From: Chloroflexota bacterium
Lineage (GTDB): Bacteria; Chloroflexota; UBA5177; JAJPKF01
Reading direction: 5' to 3'
Assembly (NCBI GenBank): GCA_035653255.1
Contig: DASRCF010000089.1
Coordinates: forward strand, 1,814-65,813
DNA length: 64,000 bases
Positions 11,162 to 51,897 of this stretch are shown here, piece after piece. Within the stretch, counting starts at the first letter, position 1; the number at the start of each line of letters is the position of its first letter. Below the pieces are notes generated by a model, which made no database searches, had not been told where the DNA came from, and saw nothing but the letters and a program-made list of their open reading frames with translations. A program made the position numbers and the translations under genes.

Positions 11162-12877
11162 ATGTTTGAAGAACTTCCCGAGAATGCCTCCGGAATCCTC
11201 ACCTGGACCTGGCCGGACTTCGAGCCGTACTTCCTGGAGCTGCTGGCGCTCGAGCTCACACCCCAGACACTGAACACGTACCTCCAAAGCTGGACACGGT
11301 TCGGGACCCTCATCGGAGAGGTCTATCAGCGTCTCTACGTCGCCAAGACGCGTAACACTGCGGACCCCGAGGTCGAGGATTGGTTCAACACGTATCTCGA
11401 GACGACGTACAGCATGGCCGAGGAGGCGGACCAACGCCTAAAGGAGAAGCTCCTCGACTCCGGTCTTGAACCCGAAGGCTTCGACATTCCACTCAAGAAG
11501 ATGCGGGCCGATGCCGAGCTGTTTCGCGACGAGAATCTCCCTCTGCAAACGGCGGAAGAGAAGATGGCATCCGAATACGATGAGATTGTCGGCCGGCAGA
11601 CGATCATCTGGAACGGGACCGAGCTGCCGCTCCCACAGGCTCGAGTGCTCCTACAGGATCCAGAGAGGATGGTCCGTGAGCAATCATGGACGTTGACCAT
11701 GGAGCGGCAGTTAGCCGATAGGGGCGCCATCAACGAGCTCTGGAAGCGCAAGCTGGACAATCGCCTACGCCAAGCCTCAAATGCCGGTTTCTCCGACTAT
11801 CGCTCATACATGTGGCTGCAGAAGCACCGCTTCGACTACGGGCCTGAGGAGTCAGTCGCGTTTCAGAACGGTGTCGCCGAGGTGGTCGTTCCCGCGGCCG
11901 AGCGGCTGAGGCATCGCCGGCGGGAGTCCTTGGGACTCGACCGCCTGAGACCTTGGGACCTCGACGTGGACGAAGACGGCAAGGATCGACTCCGCCCCTT
12001 CGAGACTGCGACAGAGCTGATTGAAGGTACCGGAAGAATGTTCAACCAGGTCGACCGGAGGCTGGGCGACTACTTCCAGATCATGGTGGACGGCTCTCTG
12101 CTGGACCTCGACAGTCGGAAGAACAAGGCTCCCGGCGGCTACTGCACCACGTTCGCGGCCGCTCAAAGGCCGTTCATCTTCATGAACGCTGCCGGCACGC
12201 ATCGCGATGTAGAAACGCTGCTGCATGAGGGCGGCCACGCGTTTCACAGCTTCCAGGTACGACATCTGCCCTATGCTCAGCAGCGGTCGGTTGGGCACGA
12301 GTTCGCCGAAGTGGCGTCAATGTCGATGGAGCTGCTCGCGGCGCCCTATCTCTCTCGACAGGAGGGTGGGTTCTACTCGCCCGCGGAAGCCGCTCGCGCG
12401 AGAAGGCAGCATCTCGAGCGAGTGATCACGTTGTTGACCTCGGTGGCCCTCGTCGACGGGTTCCAGCACTGGGTCTACTCCAACCCTGACCTGGCAGAGC
12501 AGCCCGATCGGTGCGACGAGCAATGGAGCCTGCTGTTTGAGCGCTACAACCCGGGGGTAGATTGGAGCGGCTACGAGGATGAGCTATCCACCGGTTGGCA
12601 TCGCATCCTCCACATCCATCAGGTCCCGCTTTACTACATCGAGTACGGAATCGCCCAGCTCGCGGCCATCAAGGTATGGGAGCAGGCGAGGGAGGATCAG
12701 GGGCGGGCGGTCGACCGTTACCTCTACGCCCTCTCATTGGGTGGGACGAGATCCCTGCCGGAGCTGTTCCAAGCCATCGGAGCGGACTTTGACTTCACGG
12801 CCCGTGCCTTCCGGCCAACCGTAGCCCTGTTGGAGCAGACAATCGAAGATCTGCGCCAGGTCGAGGCAGCTGCCTGA
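11162..12877 (+). CDS. pepF: oligoendopeptidase F (M3 family zinc metallopeptidase)
   Basis: The zinc motif 'HEGGHAFHSF' (HExxH) is present, along with PepF-like overall similarity. The internal ATG 11162, with SD 'GAGAGG', gives the typical ~570 aa. The ORF track opens the frame at 10934. Confidence 0.85.
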   Translation: MFEELPENASGILTWTWPDFEPYFLELLALELTPQTLNTYLQSWTRFGTLIGEVYQRLYVAKTRNTADPEVEDWFNTYLETTYSMAEEADQRLKEKLLDSGLEPEGFDIPLKKMRADAELFRDENLPLQTAEEKMASEYDEIVGRQTIIWNGTELPLPQARVLLQDPERMVREQSWTLTMERQLADRGAINELWKRKLDNRLRQASNAGFSDYRSYMWLQKHRFDYGPEESVAFQNGVAEVVVPAAERLRHRRRESLGLDRLRPWDLDVDEDGKDRLRPFETATELIEGTGRMFNQVDRRLGDYFQIMVDGSLLDLDSRKNKAPGGYCTTFAAAQRPFIFMNAAGTHRDVETLLHEGGHAFHSFQVRHLPYAQQRSVGHEFAEVASMSMELLAAPYLSRQEGGFYSPAEAARARRQHLERVITLLTSVALVDGFQHWVYSNPDLAEQPDRCDEQWSLLFERYNPGVDWSGYEDELSTGWHRILHIHQVPLYYIEYGIAQLAAIKVWEQAREDQGRAVDRYLYALSLGGTRSLPELFQAIGADFDFTARAFRPTVALLEQTIEDLRQVEAAA

Positions 12878-24694: not shown

Positions 24695-25681
24695 GTGGTC
24701 TGCGGCGGCGGCCGTCTCGACGAGCAAACCTGGTTGACCACCAACCAGGAGCCAGAGGTGCGACCGGGTCACTCACGCTCCGGCAGCGACAACCGGCCTC
24801 TGGCTGTCATCGACATCGGATCGAACACCGTACGACTGTTGGTGGCTCTTGCGGTTGATGGCAAACTTTTGACGCTGACGGATCAGAGCCGCTTTGTCCG
24901 GCTTGGCAGAGGTGTTGACGCGTCCGGGAATCTCAGTCCGGATCGGCAGCAGGCAGCGCTCGTCGCAGTCCGGGAGCTGGCGGCCGTGGCTCAAGGGTAC
25001 GGAGCCCGTAGCATGGTTGCGATCGCTACCAGCGCCGTGCGTGACGCTGCCAACGGTCCCGAGTTCGTGAGTAACCTCCGACGAGAAGCAGGCATCGCCG
25101 CTCGCATCCTCACAGGTGAGGAGGAAGCGAGGCTCACTTTTCTCGGAGCAAGCGCCGGGATTGAGATTCGCCAGGTCGCGCTCGTCTGCGACCTGGGTGG
25201 TGGCAGCACGGAGCTGGTGGCAGCCCGCGAGCAAGAGGTCCTTTGGGGTCGTTCACTTCAACTCGGCTCCGGCAGGCTGACGGAGCTGTTTGTCCATTCT
25301 GATCCGCCGGCCGAGAAGGAGCGACGCGCCATCAGAAGGCACGTTCTGGAGGCATTGCGTCAGCTCCCACGGGTGCGCCCCGAGATCCTCATCCTCACTG
25401 GAGGAACTGCCACCCATGCCGCCCTACTCTCAGGCCTGGAGTCGGGTGCGGGCGAGCTGCGGGCAGATGCTCTCCAGCAAGTAGAGGAGCGGCTCTACAC
25501 CACCCCCTCGTCGACCGTCGCCACCGAGGCGGGATTCGGACACGAGCGCGCGCAGGTGCTGCCCGCCGGAGTCACCGCGTTATGCACCATGCAGAATCAT
25601 TTCCAACCGTCATCGTCTGTAGTGACTCGCCGCGGTCTGCGGGAGGGAGCCATCCTCGATGAGCTAAGCCGGAGTGCGTGA
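24695..25681 (+). CDS. ppx: exopolyphosphatase / guanosine pentaphosphate phosphohydrolase (Ppx/GppA family)
   Basis: It has the ASKHA-type N-terminus 'LAVIDIGSNTVRLLVA' and '...LVCDLGGGSTELV'. Confidence 0.85.
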   Translation: MVCGGGRLDEQTWLTTNQEPEVRPGHSRSGSDNRPLAVIDIGSNTVRLLVALAVDGKLLTLTDQSRFVRLGRGVDASGNLSPDRQQAALVAVRELAAVAQGYGARSMVAIATSAVRDAANGPEFVSNLRREAGIAARILTGEEEARLTFLGASAGIEIRQVALVCDLGGGSTELVAAREQEVLWGRSLQLGSGRLTELFVHSDPPAEKERRAIRRHVLEALRQLPRVRPEILILTGGTATHAALLSGLESGAGELRADALQQVEERLYTTPSSTVATEAGFGHERAQVLPAGVTALCTMQNHFQPSSSVVTRRGLREGAILDELSRSA

Positions 25682-25922
25682 CCAACCGGCTGGGACCTGC
25701 AACTCGCGAACACGAAAACTGGACCACGGTGCGGGGGGCCATGGTCCAGTAAGGAGATGAAGCTGATGTCTGGGCGACCGTTGCGGCTGATTCCAATTGA
25801 CTCTATTGCCAGAGATGTTATCGAGTTGTTGCCGGGGCATTGCGGACCAGTTTCGGCTTCGAGGAAACACACCCCATACAGAGCATCAGAATTCCTCGGC
25901 TAAGCCCTCCCGAACGGCGCAC

Positions 25923-26119
25923 GTAGCCCGGCCCCTCTGTGGCCGGGCGTCGTCACGACTCGGCCTCGACCGGGCATCCGCAAAACCGGCGAGAACCGCC
26001 GAATGCCGGATTATGCCCAACTCGTGCAACGATCTCTCTTCCGGGTTGAGCATGCTTTCCTAACTCCCATACACCTGCGAACGGTCTCGCCACGCCCGGC
26101 CACAGAGGGGCCGGGCTAC
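25923..26119. repeat. 27-bp perfect inverted repeat pair (GTAGCCCGGCCCCTCTGTGGCCGGGCG at 25923-25949; its reverse complement at 26093-26119) flanking a 143-bp spacer
   Basis: The two arms are exact reverse complements, and imperfect complementarity extends a further ~10 bp on each side. The pair sits in the ~600-bp gap between the convergent ppx and ybeY genes. Confidence 0.7.
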
Positions 26120-26199
26120 GTTCGGAACCTAAAGCCGGATGTTCGGAACGGAAACCCGGATGTTCGGAACGGAGACCCAGACGTTCGGAAAGGGGAATC
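26116..26199. repeat. four tandem 21-bp direct repeats (iteron-like), core (g)ATGTTCGGAACGGA
   Basis: GTTCGGAA(C/A) starts at 26120, 26141, 26162 and 26183, an exact 21-bp period. The first unit overlaps the right arm of the inverted repeat. Confidence 0.7.
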
Positions 26200-26275
26200 G
26201 GAGCTCCCCCAGGTGTATCGGAATCGGACTTCGATCCTGCAGGTCAAGCGGATCGAGGCAGACTTCCGAGGAAGG

Positions 26276-26764
26276 TCACCCGAGCCTTGAATCGGTGAGC
26301 TGCACGGATTGCATGCCCAGATCCCGTAAGATGCGAGATTCCACCCGCGACATTTCCTTAGCCTCTTCGGGAGTATCGTGTCGGTATCCCAGGAGCTGGA
26401 GGGTTCCGTGCACGACCAGCCAAGCAACCTCTTCATCGACCGGGTGTCCCAGTTCTTGAGCCTGCGCCACTGCCCGGGGGTAGCTGATCACCACGTCGCC
26501 AAGCGGAGCCAGAGCCTCCAATGGGTCTCCTGTTGGAGACTCGGCGGGTTCGAAGAGGCCGAAGGACAGCACGTCGGTCGTCTGATCCAGGCCGCGGTAG
26601 CGAGCATTCAGGTCCTGCACCTCGGCATCGTCAGTGAGGACTATGGTCAACTCGTCCCTCCCGCCTCTCCCAGCTGCCTCCACGGCAGCCGAGGCCGCGC
26701 GCATCAGCCCTGCGCGGTCTATCTGAAGCACGACGTCCCGTCGAACGACCACCTCAGCGGCCAA
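26276..26764 (-). CDS. ybeY: endoribonuclease YbeY (rRNA maturation factor)
   Basis: The zinc motif 'HGTLQLLGYRH' is present and the size is typical. Confidence 0.85.
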   Translation of the reverse strand: MAAEVVVRRDVVLQIDRAGLMRAASAAVEAAGRGGRDELTIVLTDDAEVQDLNARYRGLDQTTDVLSFGLFEPAESPTGDPLEALAPLGDVVISYPRAVAQAQELGHPVDEEVAWLVVHGTLQLLGYRHDTPEEAKEMSRVESRILRDLGMQSVQLTDSRLG

Positions 26765-51737: not shown

Positions 51738-51812
51738 TGGAGGCGACGGCCGGAATCGAACCGGCGATAGAGGTTTTGCAGACCTCCGCCTTAACCACTT
51801 GGCCACGTCGCC
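51738..51812 (-). tRNA. tRNA-Cys (GCA)
   Basis: The cloverleaf was folded by hand. It has acceptor GGCGACG/CGTCGCC, anticodon loop CTGCAAA, T-loop TTCGATT and an encoded CCA. Confidence 0.85.
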
Positions 51813-51822
51813 GAAATAAAAA

Positions 51823-51897
51823 TGGAGCGGAAGACGAGGTTCGAACTCGCGACCTTCTCCTTGGCAAGGAGACGCGCTACCACTGCGCCACTTCCGC
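51823..51897 (-). tRNA. tRNA-Gly (GCC)
   Basis: It has acceptor GCGGAAG/CTTCCGC, anticodon loop TTGCCAA, T-loop TTCGAAC and an encoded CCA. Confidence 0.85.

Follow-up and report, generated by a model that had tools for sequence, protein, structure and literature searches.

A head-to-head pair of GTAG-type REP sequences between ppx and ybeY of a Chloroflexota bacterium is probably an internally deleted REPtron

What kind of element occupies the gap between two convergent genes in the 64,000-nucleotide stretch of Chloroflexota DNA analysed here (the window)? The gap contains a pair of long inverted repeats followed directly by a short tandem array, for which the first-pass annotation had proposed a structured sRNA, a MITE-like element with the repeats as its ends, a partition or replication-like protein-binding site, or a regulatory platform. 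Pfam identifies the neighbours as Ppx/GppA (24695-25681, + strand) and YbeY (26276-26764, - strand), which bears out the long convergent intergenic region described earlier and sets its length at 594 bp. The neighbourhood also includes genes for a 7TM-HD protein, bacA, phoU and pst genes, and the GC content across the gap is 0.59-0.65, with no drop.

The 27-bp perfect inverted repeat is real. The sequence read, the repeat search and the pattern search all place the 27-mer at 25923-25949 and its exact reverse complement at 26093-26119; zero matches are expected in shuffled sequence, and the 64-kb window contains no further copy at up to three mismatches. The repeat search extends the perfect repeat to 30 nt (25921-25950 and 26092-26121), and to 33 nt with one mismatch. 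The spacer length of 143 bp given previously is right for 27-bp arms, and is 141 nt between the full 30-nt arms. The left arm, ACGTAGCCCGGCCCCTCTGTGGCCGGGCGT, lies on the + strand with its GTAG at 25923-25926; the right arm, its exact reverse complement, lies on the - strand, and in both arms the GTAG faces outward. Within the 30-nt conserved unit each arm forms a hairpin, GCCCGGCC-CCTCTGT-GGCCGGGC, with an 8-bp GC stem and a 7-nt loop (in the left arm, from the sequence read and folding, stem 25926-25933 / 25941-25948 and loop 25934-25940), and the last G of the GTAG is able to pair with the 3' end of the stem. The predicted free energy of an arm hairpin as RNA is -19 to -25 kcal/mol. For each strand of the region a very stable fold is predicted (z = -5.9 and -4.4), and as single-stranded DNA the doublet has a minimum free energy of -66 kcal/mol (z = -7.5), the arms pairing over 30-33 nt.

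The arm is not confined to this locus. At least 21 exact copies of the 30-mer were found on eight other JGI metagenome contigs (L011-L018), in both orientations, mostly clustered and with degenerate copies alongside, and these copies sit between long ORFs; the 64-kb window contains one REP cluster only. The copies were counted from the 23-nt arm core, and the unit that is kept throughout all of them is the 30-mer of the window. Both window copies, like all 21 exact copies elsewhere, have GTAG in front of the stem, and (C)GAAC usually stands just 5' of the 30-mer (13 of 23 flanks end in GAAC). The eight contigs have a GC content of 0.62-0.68, against 0.63 for the window, and their tetranucleotide usage correlates with that of the window at r = 0.90-0.98, against 0.71-0.91 for unrelated loci. 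Two of the REP contigs share a metagenome with L002, a contig that carries an identical copy of the window locus. No exact match to the REP core was found among the GTDB species genomes, which are representatives that do not include the window's species, and none was found in viral contigs. Of the candidates listed in the first-pass annotation, the MITE-like element with the arms as its ends is thus essentially the right one, the arm having proved to be multi-copy.

At several loci the REP units form tandem arrays with different periods: about 101/197 nt in L014 (12361-12736), 169 nt in L017 (1962-2640), 177 nt in L013 (574-1106) and 49 nt, head-to-tail, in L011 (3972-4100). This indicates that tandem amplification of a REP with its flanking DNA is common in this lineage. 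The REP clusters might be read as CRISPR-like, but they lack cas genes, their repeats stand at uneven distances (96-506 nt) and the intervening 'spacers' recur too, so this reading was rejected.

The identity of the repeat is shown by L014, in which an ORF of 150 aa (11887-12339) is an intact gene for a REP-associated tyrosine transposase (RAYT, or TnpA-REP) that lies between REP copies. REPs on the + strand start at 11742 and 11827 upstream of the gene, and REPs on the - strand at 12363, 12459, 12560 and 12658 downstream of it, with GTAG outward on both sides. The ORF scores 105 bits against the NCBIfam equivalog NF047646, 'REP-associated tyrosine transposase' (cutoff 80), matches Pfam Y1_Tnp, and aligns to the E. 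coli TnpA-REP structure 4ER8 (E = 1e-8) with the HUH and catalytic-Tyr (YxxxNP) motifs in register. The structure, deposited in the PDB, is reportedly that of Messing et al. 2012. Because copies identical to the window arms flank this intact RAYT in opposite orientation, the arms are, by sequence, GTAG-type REPs forming a head-to-head (HH) dimer and not a locus-specific structure. The 64-kb window has no RAYT gene. The REP contigs and the RAYT contig were assigned to the genome of the window by composition and shared samples, and the per-genome copy number and the proportion of doublets to singlets have the same basis; on this assignment, and as part of the whole reading given below, the cognate RAYT of the window doublet is very probably encoded elsewhere in the genome.

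Distant RAYT homologues on other contigs are likewise flanked by GTAG-tagged palindromes; several of them are named RayT by JGI, and some come from Chloroflexota MAGs. Further RAYT fragments were found in L011 and L016. In L011 (4102-4248) the 5' 149 nt of a RAYT gene, 84% identical to L014 and then frameshifted, lie behind the head-to-tail REP array with the 49-nt period. This is a second, independent RAYT fragment, and the RAYT unit therefore was once present at more than one locus. Proteobacterial RAYTs typically show a single-copy pattern, unlike the RAYT unit here. On a 159-kb contig (L142) a RAYT homologue at 1201-1437 is 52% identical to the L014 RAYT, and just upstream of it there is an inverted doublet, with 72-nt arms, of another GTAG palindrome (GTAGCGCAGCC...). 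This doublet looks like a classical REPIN next to its own RAYT.

The origin of the window doublet is suggested by its spacer (25951-26091), which is read on the minus strand. In a sensitive BLAST search the REP-masked spacer had two matches, the inter-REP unit of L013 and, on the opposite strand, the 3' end of the L014 RAYT. When the minus-strand spacer was aligned locally to the L014 leader, RAYT gene and 3' UTR, window positions 26054 down to 25951 aligned to L014 12258-12362, a stretch that takes in the final ~27 codons with the stop codon and then the 3' UTR. The alignment score is 30, against 12.2 +/- 1.8 in 1000 dinucleotide shuffles (maximum 20, with 0/1000 reaching the observed score; z ~10), and the match is strand-specific, the wrong strand scoring 16. 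In both sequences the homology stops exactly at the junction with a REP(-), which in the window is the left REP. By BLASTN the identity is 72% over 71 nt, and the homologous part makes up about 105 of the 141 nt. The translated spacer has LNPEER in one frame and IVAR in another, compared with LQNPERKGIVAR in the RAYT, and is thus frameshifted. The remainder of the spacer (26091 down to 26055) lies outside this alignment and is common to the paralogue in L013.

This paralogue (L013, 552-753) covers the entire doublet, at 76% identity over 210 nt and with a REP start-to-start distance of 166 nt, against 168 nt in the window. It has the same REP(+)-spacer-REP(-) order, after which come tandem copies, of ~177 nt, of the unit made up of spacer plus REP. 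Between the window and L013 the REPs are 100% identical and the spacers ~68% identical, and the two doublets are colinear from REP edge to REP edge. This suggests that a single deletion, followed by spread or amplification, lies behind both. Taken together with the REP ends, the homology to the RAYT 3' end indicates that the window doublet has the structure REP(+)-deltaRAYT-REP(-) on the minus strand, in other words that it is, as far as can be judged from sequence, an internally deleted REPtron with a remnant of the gene in its spacer. We therefore hold, with considerable confidence, that the locus contains a head-to-head GTAG-type REP doublet derived in this way, a non-autonomous MITE-like or REPIN-like element whose cognate RAYT is elsewhere. 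It would then be a known kind of selfish DNA, and what is new is a lineage-specific member in an under-sampled phylum.

The GTAG superfamily of REPs, which form HH dimers, has been described from several phyla, Chloroflexi among them (Di Nocera et al. 2013, PMC3733652), where Thermomicrobium roseum, a member of the Chloroflexi, has the GTAG-23 family. These REPs are extragenic, often lie between convergent genes, occur in clusters that are reiterated with flanking DNA and are associated with RAYTs (PMC3733652). The window doublet resembles them in its GTAG tag, perfect stem, HH dimer with outward GTAG, conserved spacer, convergent-gene site and RAYT association, and its arms are palindromic stem-loops within the short (20-40 bp) range of the GTAG type. 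It differs from them in its spacer of 141 nt, compared with the usual 20-100 bp in REP dimers (PMC3733652), in a lineage-specific stem and loop sequence and in a copy number that appears modest. The perfect palindrome of the stem is also a likeness to group 3 systems, those of S. maltophilia. A REPtron, as defined in E. coli, is tnpA-REP between REP/BIME arrays (Ton-Hoang et al. 2012, PMC3333891; Corneloup et al. 2021, PMC8266576), and L014 is like it in having a RAYT, with its HUH and catalytic-Tyr motifs, between arrays of the same REP in opposite orientation, with GTAG in the REP. The L014 RAYT is only distantly related to the E. coli enzyme, at the E value given above, and GTAG-dependent binding and C|T cleavage are putative here. 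In contrast to a REPtron, the window copy has lost nearly the whole gene, with ~105 nt of the 3' end left.

REPINs are REP doublets that form hairpins (Bertels and Rainey 2011, PMC3116915; PMC3337134), and in the typical pattern their arms are far better conserved than their spacers (PMC3116915). The window shares with them the two inverted REPs around a spacer, arms at 100% against a spacer at ~68%, a predicted long single-stranded DNA hairpin, at least one paralogous doublet and, presumably, a RAYT acting in trans. Its REPs start 168 nt apart, where those of P. fluorescens SBW25 are separated by 71 or 110 bp, and, unlike REPINs, it has a spacer that is not self-complementary and appears to be derived from RAYT coding sequence. 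The doublet may be the unit that moves; one paralogous doublet, that of L013, with near-identical spacing and a homologous spacer, was observed. Like IS-derived MITEs, the element is ~200 bp long and non-autonomous, has kept the terminal inverted repeats of its parent and has lost most of the transposase. In this case, however, the parent would be an HUH/Y1 single-strand unit without classical terminal inverted repeats or target-site duplications, and the 'TIRs' of the window doublet are sub-terminal hairpins.

The present structure may have arisen either by decay of a RAYT copy in place or by spread of a REP doublet as a unit. By analogy with the systems of E. coli, Stenotrophomonas and Marinomonas, from which the mechanism is taken, the RAYT, as an HUH/Y1 single-strand DNA transposase, would bind the folded REP hairpin and its GTAG on single-stranded DNA, cut near the REP and rejoin strands, so that REP units could be moved and amplified in tandem. 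RAYT-based models for the tandem amplification of REPs have been put forward by Ton-Hoang et al. (PMC3333891).

Two further assemblies include the same locus, L002 (JGI 3300027773) and L003 (Logan SRR5579884), and over the part that each covers they are identical to the window except for one mismatch at 25963. L002 runs from the right flank across the right REP and the entire spacer to the first base of the left REP, and its end falls at 25950 in the window, on the inner edge of that arm; L003 contains the right flank and the 21-bp array and stops at 26096, within the right arm. That contigs end in the arms was a first hint of a dispersed repeat, and in the organism of the window the 30-mer with its shared foot is a breakpoint for short-read assembly. 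The same breaks, and the dispersed nature of the arm, could be taken to mean that the assembler itself created the inverted repeat, by a chimeric or fold-back join at a repeat. This is extremely improbable: the name of the ENA contig that includes the window, k141_428991, points to an assembly k of 141, far above the 30-nt repeat, L002 reproduces the right flank, right REP and spacer, L003 the right flank and array, and L013 has the same REP(+)-spacer-REP(-) layout at another locus. A second reading of the breaks is that they reflect mixed orientations of an invertible segment, an inverton bounded by the arms that would switch a promoter or terminator, and perfect 30-nt inverted repeats around 141 bp have a suitable geometry. 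We nevertheless consider it very improbable, given that a dispersed repeat by itself accounts for the contig breaks, the spacer of L002 has the same orientation as that of the window, the genes called up to ~10 kb to either side include no recombinase, and the spacer is a gene remnant with no promoter-like site. By its YbeY homologues the window falls in an uncultured Chloroflexota lineage. The closest of them share only 52-54% identity with the window's YbeY and stand among other genes, so that a synteny comparison based on ybeY provided no orthologous gap; an exact search with Ppx gave the source contig alone.

The stable folds of both strands and the strong arm hairpins, at a site between convergent genes, would also fit a structured sRNA, or a bidirectional terminator or mRNA stabiliser selected by the host; passages in two sources state that enterobacterial REPs affect mRNA stability and termination (PMC3733652, PMC3479197). 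The fold energy, however, is explained by two opposite copies of a family-wide repeat and not by locus-specific covariation, and the arms are 100% identical to those of the paralogue at a spacer identity of ~68%. No Rfam family was found, the best match, VA RNA, being spurious (24.7 bits against a gathering threshold of 62, E = 0.17), and a permissive Rfam search over 25400-26600 gave only noise. There is no U-tract and no promoter, promoter/terminator and tRNA scans of the gap found nothing, and ppx and ybeY have hairpins of their own nearer their stop codons. A role of this kind as the reason for the element is thus unlikely, and the sRNA proposed in the first-pass annotation has no support from Rfam. 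As both flanking genes own terminal hairpins, a host function need not be assumed. The terminator or stabiliser role is compatible with REP identity and could be a secondary effect at most: hairpins between convergent genes may incidentally block read-through or 3' exonucleases.

The tandem array next to the right arm requires a separate explanation. As first described, there are four units with an exact 21-bp period, starting at 26120, 26141, 26162 and 26183. In the unit table each consists, on the + strand, of GTTCGGAA(C/A) plus 12 nt, and the four together span 26120-26203, with GTTCGGAAC at the first three starts and GTTCGGAAA at the last. TRF reports the array at 26120-26190, with 3.4 copies, 88% matches, no indels and a score of 93. 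Adjacent units are 86%, 86% and 71% identical, the sequence is the same in the three independent assemblies (window, L002 and L003), and a +-strand ORF reads the units as heptad repeats. The array adjoins the right REP with a 2-nt overlap, and the minus-strand end of every unit, ...TTCCGAAC(G/A)T, repeats the 5' foot of the REP (CGAAC before GTAG). The in-register identity of the units with the REP 5' flanks is reached by 0/2000 random controls; without the last 5 nt it is not significant (267/2000 controls). Against the outer flanks of other REPs, the array aligns locally no better than shuffled sequence does, and nothing like it was seen at any other REP locus. As part of the dispersed REP element the array was accordingly rejected. 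Since other REPs lack it and only the foot is shared, the array is local to the ppx-ybeY locus, and by analogy with the reiterated REP clusters described elsewhere it is most likely a local tandem amplification of the DNA adjoining the GTAG foot of the REP, which could have arisen through RAYT strand transfer or replication slippage.

An exact period of two helical turns is also what is expected of a protein-binding array, and this was the basis of the earlier proposal of iterons, a partition or replication-like site or a transcription-factor platform. The likeness to plasmid or phage iterons and centromere-like arrays lies in ~21-bp direct tandem repeats with a two-helical-turn period. The differences are that the locus lacks an initiator or partition gene, an AT-rich unwinding region (GC is 0.59-0.65) and DnaA boxes, and that the array is chromosomal, between housekeeping genes, with 3.4 copies (TRF) contiguous with a REP. 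Neither DnaA boxes nor a dif-like sequence are evident at the locus. The units are thus probably not replication or partition iterons, and the platform proposal is not supported, given the lack of a rep or par gene and of an AT-rich region and the absence of the array at other REPs.

A narrower version is that the units form a functional binding array, for a dimeric regulator or for the RAYT itself, presenting the palindrome GTTCnGAAC every two helical turns, and that the REP doublet landed beside it. The 21-bp period without indels and the constancy across three independent assemblies agree with this, as does the variation within the unit: GTTCnGAAC is invariant in three units and varies in 1/9 columns, compared with 8/12 elsewhere in the unit (P = 0.016, post hoc). 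Bertels and Rainey have also raised, as speculation, a regulatory role for RAYT binding to REP-associated DNA (PMC3337134). Nevertheless, the array is downstream of both convergent genes, with no obvious promoter and no sigma-70-like promoter found, none of its neighbours is a rep, par or regulator gene, the window has no excess of the 9-mer (21 matches at up to one mismatch, against 14.9 expected), and no other REP locus has such an array. The conserved block coincides with the REP foot, identity of up to 86% between adjacent units is what recent tandem duplication usually leaves, and REP clusters are described as reiterating the DNA that flanks REPs (PMC3733652). Arrays in other phyla share with the window only the 9-mer used in the search. 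We therefore regard a binding array as unlikely, and prefer local amplification next to the REP; there is room left for a sequence-specific role of the 9-bp palindrome.

The doublet and its L013 paralogues also allow a more specific and tentative reading, which we regard as possible but doubtful: that they are a preserved intermediate in the birth of a REPIN-like element, in which the RAYT was lost by one internal deletion, the product spread or was amplified in trans by a surviving RAYT, and the 21-bp array was made by the RAYT. The array might then be the result of repeated strand transfer at the CGAAC|RT foot or, alternatively, consist of the scars of hairpin excision from a head-to-tail array such as that of L011 with its 49-nt period, and the reiterated foot might act as a landing or cleavage pad. 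If true, this would be direct sequence evidence for an origin of REPINs that Bertels and Rainey proposed as a possibility only. On the preferred reading as a deleted REPtron, the RAYT coding remnant in the spacer fits the proposed, undemonstrated origin of REP doublets from the flanks of transposase units, and a spacer apparently derived from RAYT is a small, concrete data point for REP doublets as deletion derivatives of such units. That reading places an odd structure in a well-understood class and so guards against taking it for an origin, a partition site or a riboswitch-like RNA. To our knowledge, the Chloroflexota are barely covered by the REP literature, and our data point to a complete REP/RAYT system in an uncultured member of the phylum, made up of an intact REPtron, REP arrays of both head-to-tail and head-to-head type, and several RAYT fragments in decay.

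In a scan of GTDB genomes for GTTCGGAAC-N12-GTTCGGAAC, at least 119 loci in unrelated phyla were found, against ~17 expected, an expectation for random sequence only. As the searched 9-mer alone is common to these loci and the window, they were judged unrelated. Long arrays with a 21-nt period and GTTCGGAAC occur among them (contigs L019-L137) in Nostoc/Tolypothrix, Bacteroidota, Treponema, Planctomycetes and others, examples being L081 6006-6225, L022 3854-4200, L086 7104-7260 and L090 6286-6546, and about half of the listed 21-nt arrays lie outside long ORFs.

The gap itself has further features. Terminator-like hairpins without U-tracts, distinct from the REP doublet, are present just past ppx (25718-25750, + strand) and ybeY (26218-26269, - strand). 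That of ppx, with 12-bp arms and -21.5 kcal/mol, adjoins the Shine-Dalgarno sequence of a 45-aa ORF (25752-25903, + strand; ATG at 25766, stop at 25903) between ppx and the left REP. This Shine-Dalgarno sequence, AAGGAG, is strong and lies 8 nt upstream of the start, and the left REP hairpin begins ~20 nt past the stop. Pfam gave no match for five ORFs in or extending into the gap, including the 45-aa ORF region and the + strand heptad-reading ORF. The sole database match of the 45-aa ORF is P0241, a JGI gene call of the same length and sequence, for which a look-up yielded no further record; the ORF is absent from the ENA gene calls. Elsewhere in the window, and unconnected with the REP doublet, tRNA-Cys(GCA) and tRNA-Gly(GCC) are neighbours at 51738-51897 on the - strand.
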